Below are positions 1 through 15,179 of a stretch of 16,538 nt of DNA, piece by piece (the stretch's first letter is position 1; each line of letters begins with the position of its first letter). The notes below the pieces were generated by a model. It ran no database searches. It saw only the letters and a program-made list of their open reading frames with translations, and was not told the DNA's origin. Source of the stretch: Clostridia bacterium (lineage in GTDB: Bacteria; Bacillota; Clostridia; Christensenellales; Aristaeellaceae); NCBI GenBank assembly GCA_024404275.1, contig JAKSQG010000023.1:1-16538 (forward strand), read 5' to 3'. The position numbers and the translations under genes are program-made.

Positions 1-642
1 GCTCGCCCCGTGACGCTGTCCTTCATGCCGGGACAGGGCTATTCGTACTCGGGCGAGGGGTATTATTACCTTCAGCGCACCATCGAGCACCTTACCGGAA
101 AAACACTTCAGCAGCTGTATGAGCAGTTCATTTTTGAGCCTGCCGGCATGCATCACAGCGCCGTACAATGGCGGGATGAGCTGCGTACGTGCTTTGCTTC
201 CCGGCACGACGAGTCCGGTGTCCTCATGCCCTTCCGCGAGCATCCCGACAACAAAGGCGTCGCGCCATAGCCCAACGCCGCATGGAGCCTGTACACCACC
301 GCATCGGATTACGCCGCCTTCCTGCGCTACTTCCTGCATCAAAAAGGCGGTCTGACCGATCCAACCTTTTCCCTGCTGACCTCGCCGCAAAGCAAGGCGG
401 ATAAAACCGTCTGCTGGGGCATGGGCTTTGGCATGATCGCCCCCGAGCCGGGTCTTCTGTGGCACTGGGGCGACAACAAGGGCTACAAAAATATGATGGC
501 CGCCGATATCGTCTCCGGCTGTGCCATCGTGCTGCTCTCCAACAGCGATGGCGGTCTTGAAGCGGAAATGAACATCCTGCGCCGTCTGACCGACTGCACG
601 CATTGGAATGCCGTTGAAAGCTTTATCCAAACTGCCGAATAA
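1..642 (+). CDS. Serine hydrolase / beta-lactamase-family protein, C-terminal part (5' end lies outside the window), read through an in-frame TAG at 268-270
   Basis: Frame 1 is open from base 1. It carries a YSYSGEGYYYL (YxN-like) motif and a later HWGDNKGY (KTG/HxG-like) motif. ORFs 10..270 and 421..642 share one frame, and the stretch between them translates without stops as PNAAWSLYTTASDYAAFLRYFLHQKGGLTDPTFSLLTSPQSKADKTVCWG, typical of this fold. Final stop is TAA at 640-642. Confidence 0.75.
268..270 (+). other. In-frame TAG inside the serine hydrolase CDS (putative sense/recoded codon)
   Basis: Context is gcg cca TAG ccc aac. Family-like sequence continues in the same frame on both sides. 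Confidence 0.7.
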
Positions 643-647
643 AACGC

Positions 648-677
648 TTGTTCATGTATACTTTCCTATTGTATAAT
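648..677 (+). promoter_or_regulatory. Putative sigma-A promoter for the acyltransferase gene
   Basis: TTGTTC (648-653), an 18-nt spacer, then TATAAT (672-677). The RBS AAAGGAGAAAG and the ATG at 703 follow downstream. Confidence 0.4.
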
Positions 678-702
678 ATCATTGAATGAAAGGAGAAAGT
701 GC

Positions 703-2730
703 ATGAGCAAGCGTTCTGTACGCACCATCGTTACCGCCAACGGGCTGGGCAGCATTTATATGTTTATGTTTTCCATGCTGCTCTCCGGTTTTTTGCTGAA
801 AGCGCCGCTGATTGGAGGCGCCCTGGCCATGTGCGGCCATTGCGGCACGATCTTTATGGCTTCCTCTGTCAGCCGTGTGCATCTGCTGAGCAAAAAACAG
901 ACGCGCTTCCAGCAGGTCATTTATCTTCTGCTGCTCGTCATCAATCTGGCGCTGCTGTTCCTATATCCCATGGATGTCCCACGGATCAACGTCTGGATCC
1001 TGTTTTTTGTGCTGCTGTCTCTCACCTTCAGCGGCGGTGCCGCCCGGCAAATGCTGCGCCGCGGCCCGGTACAAAAAGCTCTGCGCCTTCATTTTATTCT
1101 GCAGATCGTCCTTGCCGTATCCGGATCCGCATTGCTGCTCTTCTGGTTCCCGCGCTATCTCTATCTGACCGGCGGCTACTTGCTCGCCTTCGTTCTGCAA
1201 TTGTATGAGTGCTCCGGTCCGCGCAACAGCATCCCGGCTGAAACGCCCGACCTGTCCGATGCGCACAGTGCTTTTCTCAAGGGCAATGTCTTCCGCCTGT
1301 ATGAGACCGCCAGCGTACTCATCACCATGGCCTGTTACATCTCCATCATTCTGGTCTATTGCTCGCTGGCGCTGACAGCGGAAGGTCTCTTCATCTCCAT
1401 GGCCATCGCCTTTGTCACCAACATTCTGTTTGCCGAGGCTGCCGATTATCTGCTCCGCGTGCAGGACAAGCGCAAAGCCATCAAGCCCGACACCGTCATC
1501 ATCTTCAGCCTGCTTTTGTGGCTATGCGGTCTGGTCATGTACAGCCGCTATATCCTGCGCTATGAGCCCAATCTGCTGGCCGTATACTTCGGCATGGGCA
1601 TGTGTTCTGCCGGCATCGCCGTCAGTGTCCGCTGCCTGTCGCAGATGGACCGTGTGGTTCGTCAGGCCGTGCTGCTCAACGCCGAGGCTGCCGCGCCGCA
1701 GTACAGCACGCTGAGCTTCTTTAGAAATGAGACCGCCGCCGCACTCAGTGAAATGGCCGCGCTCATCGTCATCACGCTGCTGTTCACCTTCAATCACGGC
1801 GCTTATTTCCAGCAGCTCTCCGTAGACCGACTGCAGCCCTTCCTGCTGCTGCCGGCGGTACTGCTGCTCATTGCCGCGCTGCTGACCATGCTGCGCTATC
1901 CCGCCACCAATTATTACGCACAAAAGTTAGCGCGTCTGCTGGGACTGCGTGCCTCGGGAAAAGTCAACGATGCCCTCACCCGTCAGGTGGAAAGCATCTT
2001 TGTCGAAGAACGCAAGCGTCCCCTTGGCACCAACATTCTCAAATTCCTGTTCCGTCCCTTCTGCCGTCATAAGCTTTCGGGCACCGAAAACATCCACGAG
2101 GACCCGGATAATCCGTTGGTATTCCTGTGCAACCATGCCTCGGTCTACGGTCCTTTGACCGCCGTGCTGAACATCCCCCAACCCGTTCGTCCCTGGGTCG
2201 TCAGCAACATCGTGGGCACCCCGCAATAGTTTGCCGATTATTTCCTCGAAAACACACTCGGCCCCGCCAAGCATTATCCCGAGCGCCTGAAGCCCGCCAC
2301 CGCGCTGTTTTTGGGCAAGCTCAGCGTATGGTGCATGCATCAGCTTGATTCCATCCCCGTCTACCGCGAAAAGCCCTCGCAGCTGCGTCAGACCTTCCGT
2401 CTTTCCTCCGACGCGCTGGAAAGCGGTGACAACCTGCTCATCTTCCCATAGGATCCCTCCGCGGAGTCTGACGGAGGTTATGTCCTGGAGGGCGTCGGTC
2501 ACCTCTATGAGGGCTTCACCCTGCTGGCGACAGTCTATTACAAGCGCACCGGCAAGTGCTGCCGCTTCCTGCCGATGTTTGCCCACAAGGAAAGCAAGAC
2601 CATCACCTTCGGGCAGGAAATCCGCTACGACCCCTCCCATCCCGACATCGAGGAACGCGAACGCATCTGCCGCGAAGCGGAACAGCAGATGCATGACCTG
2701 TACGAGCGTGCCTGTCGGAAGCATCCATAA
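703..2730 (+). CDS. Fusion protein of about 675 codons: N-terminal polytopic (MFS-like?) membrane domain plus C-terminal divergent PlsC/LPLAT-type acyltransferase domain, read through two in-frame TAGs
   Basis: ATG at 703 follows the RBS AAAGGAG. About 440 aa of repeated hydrophobic segments come first. The acyltransferase blocks are FLCNHASVYGP (an HX4D-like block, but with G where D is expected), SIPVYREK, and LLIFP-[TAG]-DPS at the motif III (FPEG-like) position. The frame stays open and protein-like from 2230 to the TAA at 2728-2730 apart from the TAGs at 2227 and 2449. Confidence 0.75.
2227..2229 (+). other. In-frame TAG number 1 in the acyltransferase CDS (putative sense codon)
   Basis: Context is ccg caa TAG ttt gcc, giving ...VGTPQ-X-FADYFLENTL... 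in the same frame as the ATG at 703. Confidence 0.7.
2449..2451 (+). other. In-frame TAG number 2 in the acyltransferase CDS, at the conserved Glu position of the FPEG-like motif
   Basis: Context is ttc cca TAG gat ccc, giving LLIFP-X-DPSAESDGGY. It is in frame with the start at 703 and the TAA at 2728. Confidence 0.7.
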
Positions 2731-2740
2731 ATCAGCATCA

Positions 2741-2772
2741 AAAAAGCGTCTTCCCTGCGGAAGACGCTTTTT
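2741..2772. terminator. Bidirectional rho-independent terminator between convergent genes
   Basis: AAAAAGCGTCTTCC, loop CTGC, GGAAGACGCTTTTT forms a perfect 14-bp stem with A/T runs on both sides. It sits between the TAA at 2730 (+) and the TAA at 2781 (-). Confidence 0.75.
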
Positions 2773-2780
2773 GATTGTCC

Positions 2781-3638
2781 TTACTTCACGGCGATGGTGC
2801 CGCTCGCAATGCTCTGCGTTCCTTTGCTGTTGACGGTTTTGCCTTCCGCCTCCACATTGATCTGTCCCCCGGTGATGGACAGGTCGGTAGCAGACTGAAT
2901 GCCGTCATCGCCGCTCACAATGGTGATACTGCCGCCGGCAATATACACATAGCCCTTGCCGGCTTTGTTATCCGTATCGGCCTTGATGCCGTCGCCCGCA
3001 GCGTTCAGCACGAGTGTACCATCCTTGATGGACACGGAATCATTGCCCTTCAGGGCATTCTTGGCGGCCACCACGGTGATATTGCCGGAAACAATGTGCA
3101 AATCGTTCTTGGTGCCGATACCGTTGCCCATGTTGCCGTTGACGGTCAGAATGCCGTTGCCGTTGATGCACAAATCATCCTTGGCATAGATGCAGGCATT
3201 GGGCTGCTTGTCCAGTGCCAACGTATACGCAGCGGCGTCCGTCAGCGTGTTGACAGAGCCGTCCGCCAGTGTGATCTTGCACTTATCGGCAGAAACGATA
3301 TAGATGGGGGCGCTGTCAGCGCAGGTGAGTGTCAGACCGTTCAGCACCAGATGCACCTTGGCGTTTTTGTCGACCTCCACCTGAACGCGGCCGTTAGCGC
3401 ATTCGCCGCTGAGCACATAAGTGCCCGCCGCATTGATATACACGGTGGTGCCATCCACAGCAGCGCCGCTGCCATTGACCAGTACGCCATTTTCAGAGAA
3501 GGTAACGGTCACCGCTTCGGTCCAGGAAGCGTCCAGATCATACTTGGTGAAGACATCGGAATAATCCGCCGCCATCGCGGAAGCCAGCATCATAGAAGCC
3601 AGCACAATGCTCAGCAGCAGGCTCATCAGTTTTTTCAT
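2781..3638 (-). CDS. Secreted beta-helix protein, probably a Cthe_2159-like carbohydrate-binding domain protein
   Basis: RBS AAAGGAG lies 7 nt before the ATG. The signal peptide MKKLMSLLLSIVLASMMLASAMA/AD precedes Gly/Asn/Asp-rich repeats (INGNGILTVNGN, ITVVAAKNALKGN, ITIVSGDDGIQS). The family assignment is from memory. Confidence 0.75.
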   Translation of the reverse strand: MKKLMSLLLSIVLASMMLASAMAADYSDVFTKYDLDASWTEAVTVTFSENGVLVNGSGAAVDGTTVYINAAGTYVLSGECANGRVQVEVDKNAKVHLVLNGLTLTCADSAPIYIVSADKCKITLADGSVNTLTDAAAYTLALDKQPNACIYAKDDLCINGNGILTVNGNMGNGIGTKNDLHIVSGNITVVAAKNALKGNDSVSIKDGTLVLNAAGDGIKADTDNKAGKGYVYIAGGSITIVSGDDGIQSATDLSITGGQINVEAEGKTVNSKGTQSIASGTIAVK

Positions 3639-3673
3639 GGAATGATCTCCTTTCGGTTTTCGGGAACATCTTT

Positions 3674-3702
3674 AGTGTACCATACCAATTATTGAAAAAC
3701 AA
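3674..3702 (-). promoter_or_regulatory. Possible promoter for the beta-helix gene
   Basis: On the minus strand: TTGTTT (3697-3702), a 17-nt spacer, then TGgTACACT, an extended -10 with its hexamer at 3674-3679. Confidence 0.35.
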
Positions 3703-3729
3703 CCGGAATTGCATGAACGGTGTGTGAAT

Positions 3730-5076
3730 TTACACCTTCGGTGGGGCGATATAGCCATACTTGTCGCGCAGCCGCACCCAGAAATATACCGTGACCGCCA
3801 GCGACAGCAGTTCTGAAAAGAAAACGGAAAGCCATACACCGTCCAACTGCCAGAATAGCGGCAGCAGCAGCACCATCCCCGCTTGAAACAGCAGCGTACG
3901 CACAAAGGAGATGCCCGCCGACACCGCGCCGTTGTTGAGTGCGGTAAAGAAAGCCGAGCCATAAATGTTGAACCCGCACAGCAGGAACGCCAGGCTGTAC
4001 AGCCGAAAGGCGTGCTCGGTCATGGCCAGCAGCTCGGCATCATAGCTGACATACAGCAGTGCCAGCGGTCGGGACAGACCGATGGCGATCGCCGTCATGC
4101 CGATTGCCGCCAAACCGATCAGGTGCAGGCTTTTGGCAAAAATATTCTGCAATTCTCTGCGATTCTGCGCCCCGTGGTTGAAGCTGACAATGGGTGCCGT
4201 GCCCATTGAATAGCCGATATAGACCGATATAAAGATGAAATTGACGTACATGATGACGCCGAACGCTGCCACCCCTGCTTCCCCTGCCAACCGCATCAGT
4301 TGAAAATTGAAAAGCATATTGACCACCGACAGGGAAATATTGGTCATAAACTCACTGACGCCGTTCGAGCATGTTTTCCAAAGCGCCGAAAGATCAAGCC
4401 AGGCGCTTCCCAGATGCAGGCGGCTGCGGTTTGGCAACGCGAAGTAGACAAGCGGAATGATGCCGCCTACCATCTGACTGATCGCAGTCGCCCAGGCGGC
4501 CCCCGTAACCCCCAAGCGCAGCATGCCCACCAGCACAGCATCGCCAACCATATTGGTCACGCCCGCGGCGATGGTCAGGTACAATCCCAGCTGCGGTCTC
4601 TCTGCTGCTACCAGAAAGCTTTGGAACAGATTCTGCAGCATGAAGGGGACAAGCGCCATCATGATGATGCGCCCGTAGTCCACACAGTAGGGCAGCATTT
4701 CCTCCGTCGCACCCAGCAGCAATGCCACATCCCTGAGCCATATTTCGCCGATGACAGTCAGAATCAGGCCCATGATGATGATAAAATACACCAGCATGCT
4801 GAAGATGCGGTTGGCCTCCCGCGGCTTATTTTCGCCAAACCGCATCGATACCAATGCCGTACCGCCCGTACCCACCATAAAGCCGATGGAGGAGAAAATC
4901 ATCAGGAAAGGCATGATCAGGTTGATGGCCGCAAAAGGCGTTTTCCCTGTCCAGTTGGACACAAAAAAGCCATCCACCACGCCGTAAATGGAGGTAAACA
5001 CCATCATGCCCACAGACGGCATCACAAACCGAAGCAGCTTTTTATAATCAAAATGATCCGACAGGGCAATGTTCAT
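3730..5076 (-). CDS. MATE-family multidrug/toxin efflux transporter
   Basis: 448 aa and about 12 hydrophobic segments. The N-terminus (KKLLRFVMPSVGMMVFTSIYGVVDGFFVSNWTG) is typical of MATE proteins. ATG at 5076 follows the RBS GGAGGAG. The upstream extension to 5166 lies inside the GNAT gene. Stop is TAA. Confidence 0.88.
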   Translation of the reverse strand: MNIALSDHFDYKKLLRFVMPSVGMMVFTSIYGVVDGFFVSNWTGKTPFAAINLIMPFLMIFSSIGFMVGTGGTALVSMRFGENKPREANRIFSMLVYFIIIMGLILTVIGEIWLRDVALLLGATEEMLPYCVDYGRIIMMALVPFMLQNLFQSFLVAAERPQLGLYLTIAAGVTNMVGDAVLVGMLRLGVTGAAWATAISQMVGGIIPLVYFALPNRSRLHLGSAWLDLSALWKTCSNGVSEFMTNISLSVVNMLFNFQLMRLAGEAGVAAFGVIMYVNFIFISVYIGYSMGTAPIVSFNHGAQNRRELQNIFAKSLHLIGLAAIGMTAIAIGLSRPLALLYVSYDAELLAMTEHAFRLYSLAFLLCGFNIYGSAFFTALNNGAVSAGISFVRTLLFQAGMVLLLPLFWQLDGVWLSVFFSELLSLAVTVYFWVRLRDKYGYIAPPKV

Positions 5077-5089
5077 ATCGCTCCTCCGT

Positions 5090-5716
5090 TCAGAAACGCC
5101 TAATGAAGCTCCAGCTGCCAAATCCCCGCCCGTTGTGCTCAAAGCGTCGCTCGTCAAACACCTCAAAACCGTTTTTCAGGTAAAAGCGGCGGTTGGGTTC
5201 GGAATTGGTAAACAGGCTCACCGCCTCGGCACCGTGCTCACGGGCATAGGGCAGCAGCCCCTCCTGCACAAAGCGGCTGCCGATACCCTTCCCTTCCTCG
5301 GATGAAGCCACGGTCAGCAGGCTCAGGTACCATGTATTGCCGTGAAGCGCATGACAGGGCGCAGACGCCTGCGGCTCCATGGCATTCCAGGCATTGACAT
5401 CCTTGCTGCCGCCGCGGCGAAGGACACCGAGCCAGCCTGCGCACACATACGCCCAGTCCCCGGGCTTCTTGAAATCGGGTGCGCAAAGCTGTCCGACCGC
5501 CACGATATGTCCGTTTTCTTTGGCGGTGATAAAATGAACGGTGGGCAAGCTCTTATTGGCCTTGAATTCACAGCGCAGCAGCGCATCCAGAAAACGGTGA
5601 CGCCGCTCGTCTTCCGTCACATATGCCGCAAAATACTCATAATCATAAAAAGCCCGGGCCGCCAGAGCAGCGCACTCCTTCCACTCGGAGGGCTTCATTT
5701 TTTCAAATGTCAGCAT
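5090..5716 (-). CDS. GNAT-family N-acetyltransferase
   Basis: 208 aa. ATG at 5716 follows the RBS AAGGAG. An acetyl-CoA binding-like block (EEGKGIGSRF) and a C-terminal NRRFYLKNGFEV are present. Stop is TGA at 5090-5092, 13 nt before the MATE start. Confidence 0.82.
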   Translation of the reverse strand: MLTFEKMKPSEWKECAALAARAFYDYEYFAAYVTEDERRHRFLDALLRCEFKANKSLPTVHFITAKENGHIVAVGQLCAPDFKKPGDWAYVCAGWLGVLRRGGSKDVNAWNAMEPQASAPCHALHGNTWYLSLLTVASSEEGKGIGSRFVQEGLLPYAREHGAEAVSLFTNSEPNRRFYLKNGFEVFDERRFEHNGRGFGSWSFIRRF

Positions 5717-5740
5717 TTCAAAACTCCTTTTGAATATATG

Positions 5741-5774
5741 AAAAAAGACGCTTGCTTTCGCAACCGTCTTTTTA
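5741..5774 (-). terminator. Terminator of the tRNA operon
   Basis: Minus strand reads AAAAGACGGTTGC-GAAA-GCAAGCGTCTTTTTT: a stem with one mismatch followed by a T6 run, immediately 3' of tRNA-Cys. Confidence 0.55.
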
Positions 5775-5775
5775 C

Positions 5776-5850
5776 TGGAGGCGCAGTCCGGATTCGGACC
5801 GGAGCATAAAGGTTTTGCAGACCTTCGCCTTACCACTTGGCTACTGCGCC
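5776..5850 (-). tRNA. tRNA-Cys (GCA), CCA encoded
   Basis: Hand-folded: acceptor GGCGCAG/CTGCGCC, anticodon arm AAGGT-CTGCAAA-ACCTT, T arm TCCGG-TCCGAAT-CCGGA. The T loop has C where the near-universal U55 is expected. Confidence 0.9.
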
Positions 5851-5858
5851 GAAAAAAA

Positions 5859-5934
5859 TGGAGCGGTAGACGAGGCTCGGACTCGCGACCTCAACCTTGG
5901 CAAGGTTGCGCTCTACCAACTGAGCTACTACCGC
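5859..5934 (-). tRNA. tRNA-Gly (GCC), CCA encoded
   Basis: Acceptor GCGGTAG/CTACCGC, anticodon arm CAACC-TTGCCAA-GGTTG, T arm GCGAG-TCCGAGC-CTCGT. The T loop again has C at the U55 position. Confidence 0.9.
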
Positions 5935-5939
5935 ACACA

Positions 5940-6015
5940 TGGTGCCTTGGGGCGGAATCGAACCACCGACACGCAAATTTTCAGTCTGCTGCTCTACCTA
6001 CTGAGCTACCAAGGC
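5940..6015 (-). tRNA. tRNA-Phe (GAA), CCA encoded
   Basis: Acceptor GCCTTGG/CCAAGGC, anticodon arm GCAGA-CTGAAAA-TTTGC, canonical T loop TTCGATT. Confidence 0.92.
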
Positions 6016-6020
6016 ATATA

Positions 6021-6097
6021 TGGCGACCCGAATGGGGCTCGAACCCATGACCTCCAGCGTGACAGGCTGGCGTTCTAACCAACTGAACTACCGGGCC
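6021..6097 (-). tRNA. tRNA-Asp (GTC), CCA encoded
   Basis: Acceptor GGCCCGG/TCGGGTC with two G-U pairs, anticodon arm CCAGC-CTGTCAC-GCTGG, T loop TTCGAGC. Confidence 0.9.
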
Positions 6098-6105
6098 ACA
6101 ATTTG

Positions 6106-6181
6106 TGGTGGGAACAACAGGGCTCGAACCTGTGACCCTTTGCTTGTAAGGCAAATGCTCTCCCAGCTGAGCTATGCTCCC
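6106..6181 (-). tRNA. tRNA-Val (TAC), CCA encoded
   Basis: Acceptor GGGAGCA/TGTTCCC, anticodon arm TTTGC-CTTACAA-GCAAA, T loop TTCGAGC. Confidence 0.9.
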
Positions 6182-6205
6182 GTGGCGTCTTGCAACGCGT
6201 ATATA

Positions 6206-6234
6206 ATGATACCTTATCCAAGTGCATTTGTCAA
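6206..6234 (-). promoter_or_regulatory. Promoter of the tRNA operon
   Basis: Minus strand: TTGACA (6229-6234), a 17-nt spacer, then TATCAT (6206-6211), about 25 nt upstream of the tRNA-Val 5' end. Confidence 0.6.
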
Positions 6235-6301
6235 GCGTTTTTTCGTTCGTTTTTAAAAAAAGTTTGTTCGTATCATCTTTGTCCTTGAAACGGATTCGCA
6301 A

Positions 6302-6337
6302 ACAAAAATGCAGGGCCCCCCGAAGGGAGCCCTGCAA
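6302..6337 (-). terminator. Rho-independent terminator of the ABC transporter operon
   Basis: Minus strand: TGCAGGGCTCCC-TTCG-GGGGGCCCTGCA followed by TTTTTG, starting 12 nt after the binding-protein TAA. Confidence 0.75.
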
Positions 6338-6348
6338 GGTGCATCGAA

Positions 6349-7371
6349 TTACTTGGTGGTAACGGCGGTGTACAGGGTGTTCCAGTGATCCAGGATCTGA
6401 GCCTTGTTTTCGGTCAGGAACTTGACATCGCGGGTAACCCACTTGATGTCTTCGGTAGCGGGCAGATAGGACTCGGCACCGTACTCGGTGTTCTTGTTGG
6501 TCATACGCAGGGTCTGCAGGCCGGCGGCGATGGTGGTAGAACCTTCCTTGGAGCAGATCCAGTCGATCATGGCCTTGGCGGCGGCTTCGTGCTTGGCGCC
6601 CTTGATCACGGCAGCACCGAAAGCGGAAGCGGAGGAGCCTTCAGCGGGATAGATCATGGCCACGTTGGTAGCGCCCTGCTGCAGCAGCTTGGACACGCCA
6701 TCTTCGTAGGTCAGACCAACCACGTATTCGCCCTTCTGGACGGAGTTGAAGCAGGCAGAGGAGCTTTCGGTGATGACCAGGTTGGGCATCAGCTGCTCGA
6801 TGTAAGCCCAGGCTTCCTCGCTGTCATGTCCGTACACGGCCATGATGTTGCACAGGTTGTTCCAGGCAGAGGAGGAGGAGTTGGGGTTGGCCAGCAGGAT
6901 CTGACCCTTCAGGGCGGGAGTCAGCAGGTCAGCATAGCCCTTGATGTCCAGGCCCAGCTGAGCAGCCAGCTCGGTGTTGACGCAGAACACGACGGTGGAC
7001 AGATGGTCCATGGAGTAGAAGCCGTTGTCGCAGGCATAGCCTTCGATGGCTTCGGCGGAGTACTCAGACACCCAGTGCTCGAACAGATCAGAGTAGTTCA
7101 TGCCGTCGGAGTCGCACAGGCCGCCCCAAACCAGGTCGCCCTGGGGGTTGGCAGCTTCAGCGGCGATACGGCCAACGGTCTCACCGATCTTGCCGTACAC
7201 GGTCTCGACTTCGATGTCAGGATACACCTCGGCAAAGCCGTCCAGCATCACGTCCAGGTCGGTCTGAGTCATGGTGGTGTACAGGATCAGGGTATTGCCC
7301 AGATCTTCGGCGATGGCAGTGCAGCCAAGCGCCATCATGGCAACCAGAAGCAGCGCGAGGAACTTTTTCAT
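6349..7371 (-). CDS. ABC transporter substrate-binding protein (Fe3+/Fbp-like family 1 SBP), probable lipoprotein
   Basis: 340 aa. ATG at 7371 follows the RBS GGAAAGGAG. The signal sequence MKKFLALLLVAMMALGC has a lipobox-like ALGC. The sequence looks like a periplasmic-binding fold, and the gene lies downstream of the permease and ATPase. The substrate is not determinable from sequence. Confidence 0.8.
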   Translation of the reverse strand: MKKFLALLLVAMMALGCTAIAEDLGNTLILYTTMTQTDLDVMLDGFAEVYPDIEVETVYGKIGETVGRIAAEAANPQGDLVWGGLCDSDGMNYSDLFEHWVSEYSAEAIEGYACDNGFYSMDHLSTVVFCVNTELAAQLGLDIKGYADLLTPALKGQILLANPNSSSSAWNNLCNIMAVYGHDSEEAWAYIEQLMPNLVITESSSACFNSVQKGEYVVGLTYEDGVSKLLQQGATNVAMIYPAEGSSASAFGAAVIKGAKHEAAAKAMIDWICSKEGSTTIAAGLQTLRMTNKNTEYGAESYLPATEDIKWVTRDVKFLTENKAQILDHWNTLYTAVTTK

Positions 7372-7442
7372 AGGGGTAACTCTCCTTTCCTTAATAGGAA
7401 AATATTCCTTAATGCGGATGCTCTCCGCATAAAGTACAGGTT

Positions 7443-9104
7443 TTACATGCGGATGTCTTCGGACTTGCTGATGGCAAGGTAGGCAACCAGCACCAGGGTG
7501 GTGACCGCCGTCAGAATGGAGGCAAAGGCACACGCAGGGCCATAGCTGCCGTTGCTGATGGCGATGTAGGTGGACATGGTCAGGTTGATGGTCTTGTTGT
7601 TGTACAGCATGATGCTGCTGGACAGTTCGGTCACGATGGAGACCCAGCTCAGCACGGCGCCGGAAAGGATGCCGCTGGACATCATGGGCACCGTCACCTT
7701 GATGAAGGTCTTGAGTTTGGAACTGCCCAGGGATATGGCGGCTTCCTCTGTACTGATGGGGATCTGCATCAGCGTTGCGGTCGCCGATCGTATCGTATAG
7801 GGCATTCTTCGTATGACCATCGACAAGATCATGATCAGCATGGTGCCGGTCAGACCGAAGGGAGCGGGACCAAAGGACATGATGAGCGCGATACCGATGA
7901 CGGAACCGGGCATGATGTAGGGCAGCATCGACATGGTATCGATGGTGTTGTTCATCATGCTGCGGCGGCGCACCACCAGGTAGGCGATCAGAATGGCAAA
8001 GATAATGATAATGGCCAGAGCCGCAATGGACTGGTACAGCGTGTTGGTGATGGAGCGGCCCAGCAGCAAGCGCTTTTTGCTGATAATGGTCTCATAGTTG
8101 ACCAGCGAGAAGCCATCCTTGAACACCATGCCGTTCACGTTGCGGAAGGACAGGTAGATGATGTACACCTGAGGCAGGAAAGCGATGGCGCACAGACCGT
8201 AGCAGTACACATACATCAGCACACCGGCAATGCCCTTGGGCTTTTTCTTTTCAACGGGGTGCAGGCTGTTGATGGAGAACTTGTACTTGCCGGTCGCCCA
8301 CTTCTGGAAGAAGAACACCACGGCGGTGACCAGAATGGCGATGACGGAGATAGCAGCGGCAAAGTTGTGGTTGGTGCCGTTTTCACCCAGGTACTGGCTG
8401 TAGATCTCGACGGGGAAGGTACGATAGCCTTCACCGATCAAAAGGGGCGTACCGAAGTCGGCAATGGCACGCATGAAAACGATCAGCGCCGCCGCCAGAA
8501 TGGTGGGCATCGACAGGTTCATCACGATGCGGAAGAAACGCTTCACGCCTGTGCAGCCCATGTTGGCGGAAGCCTCCATCAAGCTGTTGTCGATGTTCTT
8601 GAAGGCACCGTTCATGTAGATGAACACCAGCGGGAACAGCTTCAGGCTCTGCACCAGCGTGATGCCGCCAAAACCGTAGATATTGCCGATATCGATGCCA
8701 AGGTAGTTTTTAAGGAACTGCGTGATCACGCCGGAGCGACCCAGCAGCATGATCCAGGAATAAGCGCCGATGAAGGGGGCGGACATACAGCACAGAATGC
8801 TGATGACAAACAGGAATTTGGCACCCTTCAGCCGGTAGAAGCTGTAGAAGTACGAGAAGGGAATACCGATCAGCAGTGTAACAAGCGTAACGACCAGCGT
8901 CACCTTGGCGCTGTTGGTAATGGTAATGGTGTAGTAGGGGTTGGAGAAGAATTTGGTAAACTGTGCCAGAGACAGTTCGCCCTGATCACTGTAGACCGAC
9001 TGGCGCAGAATGCCAAACAGCGGATAGATCAGGATCAGCAGGAACAGCAGAAGGAAGAAGACCGAAATGACCGACCAGACATCGCGTTTTTTTCTTTCCA
9101 TCAT
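7443..9104 (-). CDS. ABC transporter permease, fused double-domain type (FbpB/ThiP-like)
   Basis: 553 aa and about 12 TM segments in two homologous halves. The RBS GGAGG precedes ATGATG at 9104. Stop is TAA. Confidence 0.85.
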   Translation of the reverse strand: MMERKKRDVWSVISVFFLLLFLLILIYPLFGILRQSVYSDQGELSLAQFTKFFSNPYYTITITNSAKVTLVVTLVTLLIGIPFSYFYSFYRLKGAKFLFVISILCCMSAPFIGAYSWIMLLGRSGVITQFLKNYLGIDIGNIYGFGGITLVQSLKLFPLVFIYMNGAFKNIDNSLMEASANMGCTGVKRFFRIVMNLSMPTILAAALIVFMRAIADFGTPLLIGEGYRTFPVEIYSQYLGENGTNHNFAAAISVIAILVTAVVFFFQKWATGKYKFSINSLHPVEKKKPKGIAGVLMYVYCYGLCAIAFLPQVYIIYLSFRNVNGMVFKDGFSLVNYETIISKKRLLLGRSITNTLYQSIAALAIIIIFAILIAYLVVRRRSMMNNTIDTMSMLPYIMPGSVIGIALIMSFGPAPFGLTGTMLIMILSMVIRRMPYTIRSATATLMQIPISTEEAAISLGSSKLKTFIKVTVPMMSSGILSGAVLSWVSIVTELSSSIMLYNNKTINLTMSTYIAISNGSYGPACAFASILTAVTTLVLVAYLAISKSEDIRM

Positions 9105-9122
9105 TTACCTCCGCGCCGTCTG

Positions 9123-10238
9123 TCAGCGGATCAGGTCGTTGACAACGCCGGTCAGCAGGTTATCGGTGCCTTCGGCATTGAACAGGTTGACCTTGTCGGT
9201 ATTGATGTTGAGCGAGATCTCGGCGCCGGGGGTCAGGGTGTCCTCAATGGTGGACTCCTGAATGATCTACGCTTCCTCGCCGGTCTCCATGGTAACAAAG
9301 TAGTGGGTGTTGAGTCCGAGGAACACGGCGTCATCCACCTTGGCGCGGATCAGACCCGCGGAAGCGTCACGGCTGAGCAGCAGCTCTTCGGGACGCAGGG
9401 AGATAATCACATCCTGCTCCTTGGCGCATTCGGGGCGCACGTTATGGATGGCCACCTTGTTGCCGTTGGGCAGCACCACCATGGTCTGACCGTTTTCGAT
9501 GACCATCTTGCCCTGCATTTGGTTGGAGCGGCCGATAAAGTTGGCCACAAACAGGTTGGCGGGGCGCTGATAGAGGTTTTTGGGCGTGCCCACATGCTGA
9601 ATGACGCCGCCGTTCATAACGGCAATGCGGTCGGATACCGCCATGGCTTCTTCCTGATCGTGGGTAACATACACGGTGGTGATGCCGACATCGTGCTGGA
9701 TGTGCTTGATGACGGTACGCATCTCCACGCGCAGCTTGGCGTCCAGGTTGGAAAGAGGTTCATCCATCAGCAGCACCTGCGGCTCAATGCACAGGGCACG
9801 GGCGAGGGCGACACGCTGCTGCTGACCACCGGACAGGCGATCGGGCATGCGGTCGGCCAGACCGTCGATCTGCATCAGCTTCAGGAAGCGGTCCGCCTGC
9901 GTGTGGATCTGGCTTTTGGGCATATGCTTGTTGGTCAGACCGAATTCCACGTTCTTGCGCACGGAATAGTGCGGAAATACGGCATAATTCTGGAATACCA
10001 TACCAATGTTGCGGCGGGAAGGATCGAGATCGTTGATGCGGGTCTCGTTAAAATAAAAATCGCCGCCCTCGATGCTGTTAAAACCGGCAATCATGCGCAG
10101 CAGCGTGGTCTTGCCGCAGCCGGAAGGTCCGAGCAGTGTGAAGAATTCGCCCTCACGGATATCCAGGTTCAGATCGGGAATGATCACATTGCTGCCATAT
10201 TTTTTCAGCGCGTGCTGAATGCGGATATTGACGCTCAT
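9123..10238 (-). CDS. ABC transporter ATP-binding protein (PotA/FbpC-like) with C-terminal TOBE-like domain, read through an in-frame TAG
   Basis: ATG at 10238 follows the RBS AAGGAG. Walker A is GPSGCGKTT, the signature is LSGGQQQRVALARAL, and Walker B is LLMDEPLSNLD. After the TAG (9267-9269) the same frame reads IIQESTIEDTLTPGAEISLNINTDKVNLFNAEGTDNLLTGVVNDLIR and ends at TGA 9123-9125. This gives a normal length of about 371 codons and leaves an 18-nt gap before the permease start. Confidence 0.8.
9267..9269 (-). other. In-frame TAG in the ABC ATPase CDS (putative sense codon)
   Basis: Minus-strand context is gaa gcg TAG atc att, giving ...METGEEA-X-IIQEST... Confidence 0.7.
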
Positions 10239-10307
10239 AGCCGTATACTCCTTTTTTATGGACGTTTCACCGTGAAATGCTTTAAAATTGCGAACATGGA
10301 TGCTTAA

Positions 10308-10336
10308 ATAGTAGCATTCATTTACCATTTTGTCAA
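10308..10336 (-). promoter_or_regulatory. Promoter of the ABC transporter operon
   Basis: Minus strand: TTGACA (10331-10336), a 17-nt spacer, then TACTAT (10308-10313), about 65 nt upstream of the ATPase ATG. Confidence 0.55.
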
Positions 10337-10377
10337 TAACTACGCCCCAAAATATGTGGAGCCGTGGAAAACACCCC

Positions 10378-10407
10378 TTGAAGTATCAAACCGTTCACTG
10401 GTATAAT
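10378..10407 (+). promoter_or_regulatory. Promoter of the ansA-uvrA operon
   Basis: TTGAAG (10378-10383), an 18-nt spacer, then TGgTATAAT, an extended -10 with its hexamer at 10402-10407. The RBS AAAGGAG lies before the ATG at 10442. Confidence 0.6.
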
Positions 10408-10441
10408 AGACCGACCGGAAACGCCGGAAAAGGAGTCTGAA

Positions 10442-11473
10442 ATGACAAAAAAGATATTGCTGATCTACACCGGAGGCACCATCGGCATGACCGCCACCGC
10501 AAACGGCTACGCGCCGCAGAAGGAAGCGTTTCATCAGCTGCTCCACAGCATGCCGGGGCTCAATGCCGATGTAATGCCCGAATGGGATATTATCGATATG
10601 GACCCGCTGCTCGATTCCGCCAATATGACGGCGCACGAGTGGAACAAGATCGGCGGCATGATCGCCGACCATTACGAAGCCTATGACGGCTTTGTGGTGC
10701 TGCATGGCACCGATACCATGGCGTATACCGCCTCCGCCCTGTCCTTTATGCTGGAAAACTGCCGCAAGCCCGTTGTGCTGACAGGCGCGCAGATTCCCCT
10801 GTGCGAGGTGCGCAGCGATGCTCGCGACAACCTGCTCACCGCCATGCTGATCGCCGGCGAAGGCGTGGTCAAAGAGGTCTGCCTGTACTTCGGCGGCAGC
10901 CTGCTGCGCGGCAACCGCGCCACCAAATTCTCCTCCGATGGGCTCATCGCCTTCATCTCCCCCAACTATCCGCTGTTGGCGGAAGCCGGCATCAGCATCA
11001 AATACAACACTTCGGCACTGCTCAAGCCCCAGCGCGGTCCCTTCCGTCTGCGCCGCATGGACGATGTGCCCATCGGCGTACTCAAGATTTTCCCGGGCAT
11101 CCAGTTTGAGCTGTTTGAAGCCATCATGACTGAAAAACTGCGCGGCATCGTCATCGAGACGTTCGGCGCCGGCAACATTCCCGGCAGCGGCACGGCATTG
11201 CTGCCCATCATCCGCCGCGCCTACGCCAACGGCACCGTGCTGACCGTCTGCTCCCAGTGCCCGCAAGGCGCGGTCGCCCTCGGCGCGTATGAGACCAGCA
11301 CAGCGCTCAAAAACGCGGGTGCTGTCAGCGGCTATGACATCACCACCGAGGCGGCGGTGACCAAGCTCTACTATCTTTTCAGCTGCGGTTTTGATACCGA
11401 CAGCGTCAAGCATCTGATGGAAAGCAATCTGCGCGGGGAGATGACCCGCCGCGACGCTTCGGAGGAAAAATGA
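10442..11473 (+). CDS. ansA: L-asparaginase, type I (cytoplasmic)
   Basis: 343 aa. The catalytic motifs [11 protein letters not shown] and [10 protein letters not shown] are present. The TGA stop overlaps the uvrA ATG (ATGA). Confidence 0.88.
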
Positions 11474-14304
11474 ACGACTCCATTATCGTAAAAGGTGCCC
11501 GGCAGCACAACCTCAAAAACGTCTCCGTCACGCTGCCTCGCAACAAGCTGATCGTTTTCACCGGTCTGTCGGGCAGCGGCAAAAGCAGCCTTGCCTTTGA
11601 TACCATTTATGCCGAGGGACAGCGCCGCTATGTGGAAAGCATGTCCTCCTATGCCCGTCAGTTTCTGGGGCAGATGGACAAGCCCGAGGTCGACTCCATC
11701 GAGGGGCTTTCCCCCGCCATCTCCATCGATCAGAAAACAACTGCCCGCAACCCGCGTTCCACCGTGGGCACCGTGACCGAGATCCACGATTATTTAAGGC
11801 TTCTGTACGCCCGCACAGGCATTCCGCACTGCCCCACCTGCAGACGGTAGATCCGCCGTCAGAGCGTGGATGAAATCGTGGAGACCGTTCTTTCCTGGCC
11901 GCAGGGCTCAAGGCTTTTGCTGCTCTCCCCCGTGGTGCGTGCCCGTAAGGGTGAACACATCAAGCTGCTGGAGCAGGCGCTGAAGGACGGCTTCCTGCGT
12001 GTGCGCATCGACGGCGAAATGTACGAGCTGGATGATCCGCCCAAGCTGGACAAGCAGAAGAAGCACACCATCGAGATCGTGGTGGACCGCCTCATCCTGC
12101 GCCCCGATATCCGTCAGCGCCTGACCGACAGCATCGAAACTGCCATGAAGCAGAGCGGCGGTCTTGTCACCGTCATGCTGGCGGACGGCAGCATGGAAAC
12201 GCAGTTTTCCCAGAATTACGCCTGTCCCGAATGCGGCGTCAACATCGAAGAACTGACGCCCCGCATGTTTTCCTTCAACAATCCCTACGGCGCCTGCCCG
12301 CATTGCAGCGGTCTGGGCGTGATGATGAAGATCAGCGAGGACCTGTGCATCCCCGACCGCAGCCTGTCTCTGGCACAGGGAGCCGTCAGCTGCATGGGCT
12401 GGAGCAGCGGCAGCGAAAGCAGCATGGCCGCGGGCATGTTCCGCGGTCTGGCGGAGCGCTACGGCTTCAGCATGGATACGCCTGTGCGCGACCTGCCCCC
12501 CAAGGCGCTCGAGGTCATCCTGTACGGCACCAATGGCGAAAAGATCGATGTCAGCTACGATTCCATCCACGGTCACGGCGTGTACAAGACCGCCTTTGAG
12601 GGCGTCATTCCCTCCATGGAGCGCCGCTACCGTGAAACGCAGAGCGACAGCATGAAGGCGGTCTACGAAGAGTACATGACCACCATGCCCTGCCCCGAAT
12701 GTCACGGCATGCGCCTCAAAAAGGAAGCGCTCGCCGTCACGGTGGGCGGCAAAAACCTTGCCGAACTCAGCGATATGAACATCCGCAAGGCCCGTGATTT
12801 TCTGACCGCACTGGAGCTGGATGCCACCCGCACCATGATCGCGGGACCTATCCTCCGCGAGGTGGACAGCCGTCTGGGCTTCTTGTGCAACGTGGGTCTG
12901 GAATACCTGACGCTCTCCCGCGGCGCTGCCACCCTTTCGGGCGGTGAGGCGCAGCGCATCCGCCTTGCCACGCAGATCGGCAGCGGCCTCATGGGTGTAC
13001 TGTATATTTTGGATGAGCCCAGCATCGGTCTGCATCAGCGCGACAACGCCCGCCTGCTGGCCACCATGCAGCGGCTGCGTGATCTTGGCAATACGCTCAT
13101 CGTGGTCGAACACGATGAAGAGACTCTCCGTTCCGCCGATTATGTGGTGGATATCGGTCCGGGGGCGGGCATCCACGGCGGCAACATCGTCGCCGCAGGT
13201 ACGGTCGAGGAGATCATGAACACCCCCGGCTCCATCACCGGCGATTATCTGGCAGGACGCCGCGTCATCGCCGTACCCGAAACCCACCGCGTTCCCACCG
13301 GCTGGCTGACCGTCCGCGGTGCCCGCGAACACAACCTCAAAAACATCGATGCCGCCTTCCCGCTGGGCGTTTTCTGCTGCGTAACGGGCGTTTCCGGCAG
13401 CGGCAAGAGCAGTCTGGTCAATGCCATCGTGCACAAAACGCTGGCAAGGGATCTGAACCGTGCCCGTACTGTGCCCGGCGAATGCGACGGCATCGAGGGC
13501 ATGGACCGGCTGGATAAGATTATCTGCATCGATCAGAGCCCCATCGGGCGCAGCCCGCGCAGCAACCCCGCCACCTATACCGGCTTGTTCGATATCATCC
13601 GCAAGGTGTTTGCGCAAACGCCCGAAGCCAAGGTCCGCGGCTACAAGGAGAACCGCTTCTCCTTCAACGTCAAGGGCGGCCGCTGCGAAGCCTGCTCCGG
13701 CGATGGCGTGCTCAAGATCGAAATGCACTTCATGCCCGATCTGTATGTGCCCTGCGAGGTCTGCGGCGGCAAACGCTATAATTATGAAACGCTGCAGGTC
13801 AAATACCGCGGCTACAGCATCTCGGACATATTGGAAATGACCATCGAGGACGCCATGGGCGTGTTTGAAGCCTTCCCGCAGATCATGTCCCGTCTCAAAA
13901 CGCTCAGCGAGGTCGGTCTCGGGTACATCAAGCTCGGTCAGCCCGCCACCACCCTGTCGGGCGGCGAGGCGCAGCGTGTCAAGCTGGCGACCGAACTGAG
14001 CCGCCGCACCACGGGACGCACACTCATCCTGCTGGATGAGCCCACCACGGGACTTCACACCGATGACGTCAGCCGCCTCATCCACATTCTGCAGCGTCTG
14101 ACCGATGCGGGCAACACCGTGCTGGTCATTGAGCACAACCTGGATGTCATCAAAACCGCCGACTATGTGCTCGACCTCGGTCCCGAGGGCGGCGACAAGG
14201 GCGGTCAGATCGTCGCCGCGGGCACGCCCGAGCAGGTAGCGGCTGTCGAAGGCAGCTACACCGGTCAGTACCTCAAAAAGATCGGCATCACACCTCAGGC
14301 ATAA
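11470..14304 (+). CDS. uvrA: Excinuclease ABC subunit A, full length (944 codons), read through an in-frame TAG
   Basis: Two Walker A motifs ([20 protein letters not shown]), two signatures ([24 protein letters not shown]) and Zn-finger Cys clusters are present. ORFs 11470..11850 and 11866..14304 share one frame, and the junction ...[25 protein letters not shown]... is colinear with known UvrA proteins. Stop is TAA. Confidence 0.92.
11848..11850 (+). other. In-frame TAG in uvrA (putative sense codon)
   Basis: Context is aga cgg TAG atc cgc. The UvrA sequence is uninterrupted on both sides. Confidence 0.75.
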
Positions 14305-14345: not shown

Positions 14346-15179
14346 ATGAATTCCTTCAGTGAAGAACTGCTGTCCGCACGCAAAGCAAAAAACATGACGC
14401 AGGAGCAGCTGGCTGCTGCGCTCAACGTCACCCGTTCTACCGTGTCCCATTGGGAAAACGGCCGTAATGAGCCCGATCTGGAAACCCTTCAAAAGATCTC
14501 TTTGCTGCTGGAAACCACCTTTTCCGTGCAGGTAACCCCCGCTGCCGAGGCAGCGCCTGCCGCTGACCGTGAACAGCTGGTCAGGAAGAACAAGCTTCTC
14601 AAAATAATGGCCGCCATCATCGCTCTTTTGCTGATCGTGATCGTCGTCCTCATTGCCTGCGGTATCCTGCCGACCGGCAGCAAGCCCGTCAACGAGCCCG
14701 CCGCCTCTGCCGATGCCGCGCCGCTTGCCGTCACCCCCATCATGCCGCCCAAAGCCGAGACCATCGAATGGTACTCCTCCGCCTGTCTGCCGACGGAAGG
14801 CATGCCTTTTGTCATGATCCAGTTCAACGAAAACCCGCTCCGGGCTATCAACAACGCTGATTTGTTCCCCGATGGACCCGGCTGGTTCTACACCACCTAC
14901 CTGACCGAAACCAACGGCAAACCCTTTACGATCACCCACCTTCGTCTGGTGAATTTTATGGATATCAAAAATGATATCTTCGACTATGACGGTGACACCG
15001 TTTCCGGTTGGTTTGGCAGCAGCACCCTTCCCCCGCGCGAGCAATTTGCCTTCAACGGCGGCTTCCCCATGGTGCCCGAAATCAAGGGTATCGGCTTCTG
15101 CCTGACTGGCAGAGCCGAAGACGGTACCGAAATGGAATTCCATGCCTATCTCCCCCTGCTGCAGGAAGTAGCCGAATAA
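14346..15179 (+). CDS. Membrane-anchored XRE-family HTH protein (cytoplasmic HTH, one TM, about 170-aa extracytoplasmic domain)
   Basis: The N-terminus LLSARKAKNMTQEQLAAALNVTRSTVSHWENGRNEPDLETLQKISLLL is a classic HTH_3 sequence. The TM segment is IMAAIIALLLIVIVVLIACGIL. The C-terminal domain is unassigned. Stop is TAA. Confidence 0.8.
   Translation: MNSFSEELLSARKAKNMTQEQLAAALNVTRSTVSHWENGRNEPDLETLQKISLLLETTFSVQVTPAAEAAPAADREQLVRKNKLLKIMAAIIALLLIVIVVLIACGILPTGSKPVNEPAASADAAPLAVTPIMPPKAETIEWYSSACLPTEGMPFVMIQFNENPLRAINNADLFPDGPGWFYTTYLTETNGKPFTITHLRLVNFMDIKNDIFDYDGDTVSGWFGSSTLPPREQFAFNGGFPMVPEIKGIGFCLTGRAEDGTEMEFHAYLPLLQEVAE

Follow-up and report, generated by a model that had tools for sequence, protein, structure and literature searches.

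Genes and in-frame TAG codons at the locus

The window, the whole 16,538-nucleotide stretch of DNA analysed here, carries the 3' part of a serine hydrolase gene, a gene for a large membrane protein, a tRNA cluster, an ABC transporter ATPase gene and uvrA, whose start overlaps the stop of an asparaginase gene (ATGA). Table 1 lists these features together with five in-frame TAG codons in the four protein-coding genes. A preliminary description of the sequence had reported these five TAGs, and all are present and in frame. The frames that contain them continue to TAA or TGA at normal protein lengths (675, 371 and 944 aa for the membrane protein, the ATPase and UvrA) with zero frameshifts and zero in-frame TAA or TGA, also as described. 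The window holds 13 complete coding sequences, eight ending in TAA and five in TGA; the 14 claimed earlier (eight and six) was an overcount, and the accompanying statement that none ends in TAG was correct.

Table 1. Features of the locus, with positions in the window
Feature	Position	Strand	Detail
Serine hydrolase (Beta-lactamase family) gene, 3' part	1..642	+	TAA end; PF00144, E=4.9e-17
In-frame TAG, hydrolase	268..270	+	Codon 209 of full-length gene, codon 90 of the window's partial gene
675-aa membrane protein, weak PlsC-like acyltransferase C-terminal domain	703..2730	+	TAA end
In-frame TAG, membrane/acyltransferase-like gene	2227..2229	+	Codon 509
In-frame TAG, membrane/acyltransferase-like gene	2449..2451	+	Codon 583, LLIFP*D (FPEG-like) motif
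GAG in window, TAG in L083 and L087	2488..2490	+	Acyltransferase-like gene
GAA in window, TAG in L083	2617..2619	+	Acyltransferase-like gene
tRNA cluster Val(tac)-Asp(gtc)-Phe(gaa)-Gly(gcc)-Cys(gca)	5776..6181	-	ARAGORN
ABC transporter ATPase gene, 371 aa	9123..10238	-	TGA end; Pfam ABC_tran and TOBE_2
In-frame TAG, ABC ATPase	9267..9269	-	Codon 324, within TOBE_2
uvrA, 944 aa	11470..14304	+	TAA end; Pfam UvrA_inter and UvrA_DNA-bind
In-frame TAG, uvrA	11848..11850	+	Codon 127

Two of the TAGs are spanned by Pfam domains, the Beta-lactamase domain at residues 5-195 of the partial hydrolase (TAG at 90) and TOBE_2 at ATPase residues 279-352 (TAG at 324); the UvrA TAG at residue 127 lies just N-terminal of UvrA_inter (131-237). 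The label 'acyltransferase' given earlier to the membrane protein is weak, the PF01553 match (E=0.001, 19.4 bits) falling below the 23-bit cut-off. No common sequence context, such as a methylation motif or recoding signal, was apparent on inspection around the five window TAGs. The chance that five of five nonsense codons would be TAG had been put at (1/3)^5, which is too generous: weighted by the one-step mutational targets in the TAG-bearing genes (670 for TAG, 413 for TAA, 174 for TGA), the probability is ~0.04. It is the comparison with relatives, and not this figure, that decides the matter.

The same locus in other samples

The public source record of the locus, MAG assembly GCA_024500545.1, contains the TAGs and is the first of five samples considered here. 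The others are ERZ27247129 (L082, L092), GCA_045599485.1 (L083, L093, L094), SRR27361835 (L087) and GCA_045640475.1 (L091), giving a lineage of at least three species-level genomes. In these four samples the locus is 87-96% identical in nucleotide sequence and always contains in-frame TAGs, some at the window's positions and some at others. Three of the five window sites are TAG again elsewhere: site 268 in L087 and L092 (GAG in L083 and L093, the full 332-aa L083 orthologue being free of TAG), site 2449 in L082 and L087 (GAG in L083), and site 11848 at the same codon in L083. The remaining two are sense codons in every other covering assembly, always GAG or GAA: site 2227 is GAG in L082 and L087 and GAA in L083, and site 9267 is GAA in L082 and GAG in L083 and in the outgroup L084. 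At further positions, GAG or GAA in the window corresponds to an in-frame TAG in relatives (Table 1), and a 272-aa PfkB fragment ending at TAG occurs in at least four assemblies. The preliminary description had named independent assemblies as a check that could overturn its reading, and in them the TAGs recur.

Purifying selection stays as strong past the TAGs as before them. When the window is compared with L083 (dS ~0.5 for both genes), uvrA has a dN/dS of 0.026 before its TAG and 0.036 after it, and the ATPase gene has 0.027 and 0.028 on the two sides of its own. For the 675-aa membrane protein, the same comparison gives 0.098 ahead of the first TAG, 0.076 between the two and 0.077 beyond the second. 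In a response regulator gene of the lineage, the stretch past the TAG at codon 244 comprises seven conserved codons with two synonymous changes and a common TGA end.

These data bear on whether the TAGs are translated at all. Errors of sequencing or assembly could have produced them, as could nonsense mutations that turn the genes of a decaying genome into pseudogenes, or editing of the window, and the NCBI pipeline evidently handled several TAG genes as pseudogenes or fragments. The ATPase, for example, has no protein accession: its neighbours are MCQ2453469 (SBP) and MCQ2453471 (asparaginase), and the single number between them presumably belongs to the permease, as would fit the ATPase having been annotated as a pseudogene. 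We nevertheless consider untranslated TAGs extremely improbable. In-frame TAGs come from five independent samples and assemblers, at both common and private positions; the interrupting codon is only ever TAG, never TAA or TGA, and never a frameshift; and dN/dS past the TAGs is as low as before them, with almost all sites at Glu codons. A G-to-T damage artefact is ruled out by the comparison of the window with L001, where three synonymous transitions are the sole differences and no G-to-T excess is seen, and by the lack of GAA-to-TAA changes, which were never observed although GAA is about as common as GAG.

Glutamate as the probable residue at TAG

Within ~38 kb of lineage DNA from one chromosomal neighbourhood, we counted 22 different in-frame TAGs, spread over 11 of some 34 genes, including uvrA and genes for the ABC transporter, a response regulator, UDG and an LRR protein, with up to four TAGs in one gene (the LRR protein and the acyltransferase-like gene). 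A site was scored as Glu if the orthologue had GAG or GAA, if P0416 had E, or if the column was invariant E. Eleven of the 14 comparable sites are Glu, two are CAG (Gln) and one is GAT (Asp). Of the sense codons one step away from TAG, GAG accounts for only 17%. The TAG columns of the ATPase and of UvrA are each E in 120 of 120 homologues, the uvrA codon being GAA in the outgroup L088, and P0121 is identical to the window's ATPase except for S109N and an E at the TAG position. TAG pairs with no non-Glu codon in the window-L083 codon matrix, and it swaps with both GAG and GAA between close relatives and so behaves like a synonymous Glu codon. Its placement at relatives' Glu codons inside intact conserved genes argues that TAG is very probably read as glutamate.

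A different residue at TAG, whether glutamine, pyrrolysine or a mixture, would have precedents: pyrrolysine use occurs in some Firmicutes, and UAG is read as glutamine in supE strains and code-15 phages. The two CAG-aligned sites, both CAG in a sister genome, would fit such a reading, as would the 'Pyl' tag of ARAGORN, which the program gives to any tRNA with a CUA anticodon. However, the predominance of Glu among the comparable sites, including columns that are E in every homologue, makes it very unlikely. A glutamine reading predicts mostly synonymous CAG-to-TAG transitions, and only two of the 14 sites are of this kind. As for pyrrolysine, here no TAG falls in methylamine methyltransferase genes and there is no link to Lys; the TAGs are at Glu columns of unrelated housekeeping genes. 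We read the two CAG sites and the GAT site as conservative replacements under glutamate decoding. In a divergent DUF6273 gene of L091, TAGs stand opposite Y, K, S and D of the L083 copy; either the gene may be in decay or the two sequences may not be aligned as orthologues.

The preliminary description had also called for a tabulation of stop-codon usage and in-frame TAGs. Alongside the 22 in-frame sites, not one of 33 distinct lineage genes has TAG as its stop, and TAA is the main stop (21 of 33). The two nearest outgroups (77% identity for the ATPase, 81% for uvrA) have TAG stops in 3 of 29 genes, and other loci totalling 1.6 Mb in 231 of 1182. The lack of TAG stops has a probability of ~0.03 at the outgroups' 10% rate and lies in a range of ~0.03 to 0.0006, which is modest support. 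The gene calls of the nearest outgroups, the level at which they were compared, contain no split genes, and one of the two encodes RF1; judged from these sequences, the nearest outgroups are standard-code organisms. In the clade, genomes with 89-96% nucleotide identity all have in-frame TAGs, and TAG ends genes in the outgroups. Two further controls based on 'TAG-bridged ORFs' in 1.6 Mb of unrelated loci did not discriminate and were discarded, one being swamped by antisense shadow ORFs and the other catching adjacent same-frame operon genes while missing the window's own cases, and from both we retained the stop-usage count alone.

Efficient amber suppression would also yield glutamate at TAG. 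A suppressor tRNA, possibly borne by a prophage or mobile element, would insert Glu while RF1 was kept and UAG stayed ambiguous, with TAG still serving as the stop of some genes elsewhere in the genome. A prophage-like region of the lineage in L091 does have in-frame TAGs, TAG is rare (~2% of Glu codons), and its mean relative position in genes is 0.67 compared with 0.55 for Glu codons, a suggestive but not significant shift (p=0.13). Against this, the several TAGs found in single genes would multiply losses if RF1 competed, the uvrA TAG at codon 127 of 944 has been retained across a dS of ~0.5, and TAG is missing from the 33 gene ends. We therefore regard suppression as unlikely, though it is the most plausible of the alternatives.

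Reassignment of UAG to glutamate is the reading we prefer. The proposal first made from the window, that TAG is decoded as an amino acid, is supported by the sharing of sites across assemblies, the extra sites in relatives, selection past the TAGs and the stop-codon count. To this we add the amino acid, glutamate, and the extent of the trait, which very probably belongs to a clade with at least three species-level genomes. In this clade of uncultured gut Clostridia, UAG has probably ceased to be a stop and is translated as glutamate, a change that is 'genome-wide' by extrapolation from one ~38 kb neighbourhood.

By analogy with known stop reassignments, such a code would involve a tRNA with anticodon CUA charged with Glu, most economically derived from a duplicated tRNA-Glu(CUC) by a C36-to-A change, and loss or disablement of RF1. 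RF1 is to our knowledge the only bacterial factor that reads UAG, and with it lost or disabled RF2 would terminate at UAA and UGA. ARAGORN found no tRNA with a CUA anticodon in the cluster of the window or in ~60 kb of lineage DNA. A strict pattern for a Glu-type anticodon arm with CUA had no match in a metagenome scan, and a relaxed pattern had one, in L090, on a contig unrelated to the lineage. With the outgroup RF1 as query, the matches listed had 78-100% identity, nearly all at least 85%, and singled out no lineage copy; the only low-identity match among them, P0294, is an RF1 in which 34 residues are duplicated internally. Searching genome contigs with a uvrA fragment gave relatives of at most 67% identity among the matches listed. 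When looked up as exact sequences, neither the 126-aa UvrA fragment nor an HTH protein gave a match; pseudogene calls at NCBI and different start choices explain this, and it does not count against the TAG.

Comparison with known codes and consequences

The bacterial stop reassignments named in the 2021-2026 sources consulted concern UGA only, as the preliminary description had maintained: UGA is read as Trp or Gly (tables 4 and 25) in Mycoplasmatales, Absconditabacteria/Gracilibacteria, insect endosymbionts and Eggerthellaceae (PMC8629427, PMC13462651). We found no report of a UAG-to-glutamate change in bacteria in the literature up to 2026. The present clade resembles the UGA-recoding bacteria in that a stop codon appears captured at the level of a clade, in frame at conserved positions and absent from gene ends, and the expected mechanism, an anticodon mutation in a tRNA together with loss of the codon-specific release factor, is the same. 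It differs in the codon and residue (UAG and Glu) and in that it would require loss of RF1 rather than RF2. A further difference is that low GC or a reduced genome is found in most UGA-recoding lineages; the GC content here is ~56%.

Peritrich ciliates use a UAR-to-Glu nuclear code. In Blastocrithidia nonstop, UAG is likewise read as glutamate, via a tRNA-Glu with a mutated anticodon (PMC12153298). Both share with the clade the assignment of UAG to glutamate, but they are eukaryotes with a single eRF1 in which UAA was reassigned together with UAG, unlike the clade, where TAA is still the main stop. Gut phages with code 15 (crAss-like, Lak and others) read TAG as Gln, with suppressor tRNA(CUA) genes involved (PMC9523058, PMC10879173). 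They have the gut habitat and in-frame TAG in common with the clade; their code is a phage trait set against standard-code hosts, whereas the TAGs here lie in a chromosomal setting (uvrA, the tRNA cluster, the ABC operon), in housekeeping genes, and at Glu.

A genome-wide UAG-to-pyrrolysine code in archaea (Kivenson et al. 2025, as cited in the gTranslate preprint, 10.64898/2026.05.24.727570) is, going by that citation, a prokaryotic case in which UAG was lost as a stop across the proteome, and one that is difficult to spot, since coding density hardly falls. As presented there, it involves a non-canonical amino acid and needs pyl genes; the clade is bacterial and would use a canonical residue. 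Engineered RF1-free E. coli strains (RFzero, C321.deltaA and 'Ochre') are viable with UAG reassigned through tRNA(CUA) (PMC4434889, PMC11903333), and the clade would be the natural counterpart of these man-made strains. On balance we lean towards the fuller proposal that a genus-level clade of moderately GC-rich gut Clostridia uses a new bacterial code, with UAG as Glu, RF1 lost and a tRNA-Glu(CUA) gained. Among cellular bacteria this would be the first natural code that gives the amber codon to a canonical amino acid.

If this is true, bacteria can do without RF1 in nature just as engineered E. coli can; a new prokaryotic translation table is needed; and amber capture can be studied in a natural tRNA(CUA) and GluRS pair, in a genome neither small nor AT-rich. 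The clade would also be relevant to conflicts between phage and host codes in the gut, where TAG-recoding phages are common. Under table 11, about a third of the genes in the public annotation of these MAGs are marked as pseudogenes or deposited as truncated fragments, such as the 167-aa 'response regulator' MCQ2453766.1, and these lower the apparent quality of the genomes and pollute protein databases.

In-frame TAG codons in full-length genes

With reading frames called using TAA and TGA as the sole stops, the window (16,538 bp, ~56% GC) contains 13 complete coding sequences, a partial coding sequence at either end, and a cluster of five tRNA genes. Four of its genes are full length under this rule and contain one or more in-frame TAGs; frameshifts and in-frame TAA or TGA codons are absent. 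The preliminary description had located five TAGs in these genes, and each proved to be in frame exactly where reported, with the frame continuing to full length; its count of 14 coding sequences is corrected to 13 complete ones, eight ending in TAA and five in TGA. The hydrolase and ATPase TAGs fall within Pfam domains that span them, and the UvrA TAG follows the N-terminal ATP-binding segment and precedes the UvrA_inter domain.

When the ATPase sequence, with X in place of the TAG residue, was used as a protein query, it matched two near-identical full-length proteins. Through these matches and relatives from their cluster, we reached the same chromosomal neighbourhood in four further samples: ENA ERZ27247129 (loci L082 and L092; 95.9% nucleotide identity to the window), Logan SRR27361835 (L087; 93.3%), NCBI GCA_045599485.1 (L083, L093 and L094; 89%) and the more distant NCBI GCA_045640475.1 (L091), which has no overlap with the window and matches L083 at 92% and 70% in the DUF6273 gene region. 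Together with the window these represent a clade of uncultured gut Clostridia (hereafter the lineage). Relatives also carry TAG where the window has GAG (position 2488) or GAA (2617), and genes just beyond the window edges contain further TAGs, giving a total of 22 distinct in-frame sites in 11 of ~34 genes over ~38 kb of lineage DNA.

Genes with in-frame TAG codons in the window and its neighbourhood; dN/dS is given by segment in order
Gene	Position	In-frame TAG	TAG carried by	Other codons in the lineage	dN/dS
Beta-lactamase-family hydrolase (partial)	1-642	268	window, L087, L092	GAG: L083	
675-aa membrane protein, weak acyltransferase-like C-terminus	703-2730	2227	window alone	GAG, GAG, GAA	0.098, 0.076, 0.077
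Same gene	703-2730	2449	window, L082, L087	GAG: L083	
ABC ATPase	9123-10238 (minus strand)	9267-9269	window alone	GAA: L082; GAG: L083	0.027, 0.028
uvrA	11470-14304	11848	window, L083	none	0.026, 0.036
SH3/PG-binding protein	outside window	TAG			
PfkB kinase	outside window	two sites			
LytTR response regulator	outside window	two sites			
NfeD	outside window	TAG			
Family-4 UDG	outside window	two sites			
DUF6273 lipoprotein	outside window	three sites			
Leucine-rich-repeat protein	outside window	four sites			

For gene segments split at the TAGs, we compared the window with L083 (dS ~0.5) and obtained the same dN/dS either side of each TAG. Three TAGs (uvrA codon 127, response-regulator codon 168 and one in the UDG gene) are common to the most divergent genome pair, indicating that they have persisted for a long time. 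Where a response-regulator TAG lies eight codons from the end, the seven codons after it are conserved, with two synonymous changes and a shared TGA. From these sequence patterns, we take the frames to be translated through the TAGs. G-to-T damage was considered as a source of the TAGs and rejected, as over 1,520 bp the Logan contig L001 (SRR17543910) and the window are separated by just three synonymous transitions, with no sign of such damage.

Several other features of these loci were recorded. The HTH/XRE membrane-protein gene terminates at TAA (15177-15179) in the window; the codon is TAC in L083, where the product has 34 additional residues (311 aa vs 277 aa). The densest TAGs among chromosomal genes, the DUF6273 gene aside, are those of the BspA-like leucine-rich-repeat surface protein (L094 1825-3309, minus strand), for example in 'NIP*GIVAIG'; the consensus of such repeats is commonly IPEG at this point. 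At L091 1-9861 (JAZUFB010000070.1), a prophage-like tail module (tape-measure-like, Sipho_tail, Prophage_tail) adjoins the DUF6273 gene and has in-frame TAGs at 1973, 3767, 5126 and 5558. The L091 DUF6273 gene contains ~13 TAGs; some of them stand opposite Y, K, S or D in the L083 counterpart, so the gene may be in decay or the two copies may not be strict orthologues.

The residue at TAG positions

Comparison with a strict orthologue or a deep homologue alignment was possible for 14 TAG sites, and 11 of these pointed to Glu: at nine a sister genome has GAG or GAA, one is E in the retrieved protein P0416, and the eleventh, in uvrA, is based on the homologue column. The uvrA and ATPase TAG columns hold E in 120/120 homologues, and the outgroup codons at these columns are GAA and GAG. 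Across the 4,900 codons of the window-L083 codon matrix, the partners of TAG were GAG, GAA and TAG only. Random nonsense mutations would rarely yield this Glu-only pairing, as only 17% of the sense codons one step away from TAG in these genes are GAG.

L094 has CAG (Gln) at two TAG sites, NfeD codon 66 and UDG codon 6 (L092 9094-9096 and 10561-10563), and response-regulator codon 244 is TAG in L093 and GAT (Asp) in the compared genome. If TAG encoded Gln, we would expect mostly synonymous CAG-to-TAG transitions and avoidance of invariant Glu columns. The opposite was observed, and we therefore consider Gln very unlikely and regard the CAG and GAT sites as conservative replacements of an ordinary kind (Q to E, D to E). 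TAG is very probably translated as Glu in this lineage. The earlier suggestion that TAG is a sense codon is thus supported by the interchange of TAG, GAG and GAA, the even dN/dS and the lack of TAG at 33 gene ends, and the comparisons would sharpen it to a specific residue, Glu, and a clade-level trait.

Termination and decoding of UAG

The 33 distinct lineage genes end in TAA (21) or TGA (12) and never in TAG. By comparison, TAG terminates 3/29 genes in the two nearest outgroups and 231/1,182 ORFs in 1.6 Mb of unrelated loci; the chance of 0/33 is p ~0.03 to 0.0006, which makes the missing TAG stops supportive of reassignment but not decisive. In the nearest outgroups fetched (L084-86, ATPase 77% identity; L088-89, uvrA 81% identity), the gene calls include no split genes, and L084 encodes a typical RF1. 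A search with the outgroup RF1 listed matches at 78-100% identity (nearly all 85% or above), none of them assignable to the lineage. An RF1 homologue of an outgroup relative (P0294, ENA, 391 aa) has an exact 34-residue internal tandem duplication, probably an assembly artefact.

If the lineage follows the pattern of all stop reassignments characterised so far, UAG would be read by a Glu-charged tRNA(CUA), and RF1 would have been lost, with UAA and UGA covered by RF2. We lean towards this full mechanism of RF1 loss plus a dedicated tRNA. The main rival, in which RF1 is kept and efficient suppression leaves UAG ambiguous, is unlikely, as genes with several TAGs and the early position of the uvrA TAG both weigh against it. 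Reassignment of UAG from stop to Glu across the clade is the best explanation and, blending our confidence in Glu translation with that in the full mechanism, we consider it likely as a whole.

No tRNA(CUA) was present in the window or the retrieved lineage loci. The window tRNA cluster (5776-6181, minus strand) reads Val-Asp-Phe-Gly-Cys with gaps of 5-8 nt; its order is the same in the lineage genomes covering that region (L082, L083/L093), and the outgroups do not share the synteny that flanks it (ABC operon, asparaginase, uvrA). A relaxed metagenome scan produced a single Glu-type tRNA gene bearing the anticodon CUA, at 3161-3233 (minus strand) of locus L090 (JGI contig Ga0209723_1014892, 49% GC). 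Its D-arm and anticodon stem resemble bacterial tRNA-Glu; its score with the Rfam tRNA model is 40.8 bits, and the acceptor stem has two mismatches. The gene immediately follows tRNA-Gln(CUG), and a 16S rRNA gene is found ~1.4 kb away; this rRNA gene, together with a sporulation-type yunB-like gene, indicates that the contig is probably from a Firmicute. None of its three protein genes contains an in-frame TAG. We rejected this tRNA as the decoder of the lineage because the contig comes from an unrelated organism.

Known codes and the public record

All known bacterial code changes reassign UGA, apart from the new arginine-codon cases of the study that states this (Shulgina and Eddy, PMC8629427). 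The bacterial stop-codon reassignments named in a 2026 Eggerthellaceae paper (PMC13462651) are likewise UGA only, as are those in the 2026 gTranslate preprint, which adds an archaeal genome-wide UAG-to-Pyl code. The known cases given in the 2026 KACI preprint are the same; it reports finding 'many' further candidates, of which three are detailed, none a bacterial TAG case; one of its supplementary files (2.7 kb of text) does not mention these assemblies. A full-text literature search found no bacterial UAG/TAG-to-Glu code. UAG-to-Glu is known only from eukaryotic nuclear codes, which share codon and residue with the code proposed here for bacteria, and gut phages read TAG as Gln, in contrast to Glu in this lineage. 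Given that the bacterial stop cases named in these sources involve UGA, we rate a stop reassignment with this codon/amino-acid pair as new for bacteria; it would imply a different release factor.

The GCA_024500545.1 accessions shown for window proteins are MCQ2453466, 68, 69 and 71. Only one number is free between the SBP (MCQ2453469) and the asparaginase (MCQ2453471), presumably that of the permease, which leaves the ATPase without an accession. The ATPase was thus evidently annotated as a pseudogene, which places the TAG in the deposited sequence. Public annotation of GCA_024500545.1 under table 11 enters shortened products of some TAG-containing genes as proteins, such as a 167-aa 'response regulator' (MCQ2453766.1), and evidently leaves out others, the ATPase among them. 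As a result, protein clusters for the lineage mix fragments with full-length forms.
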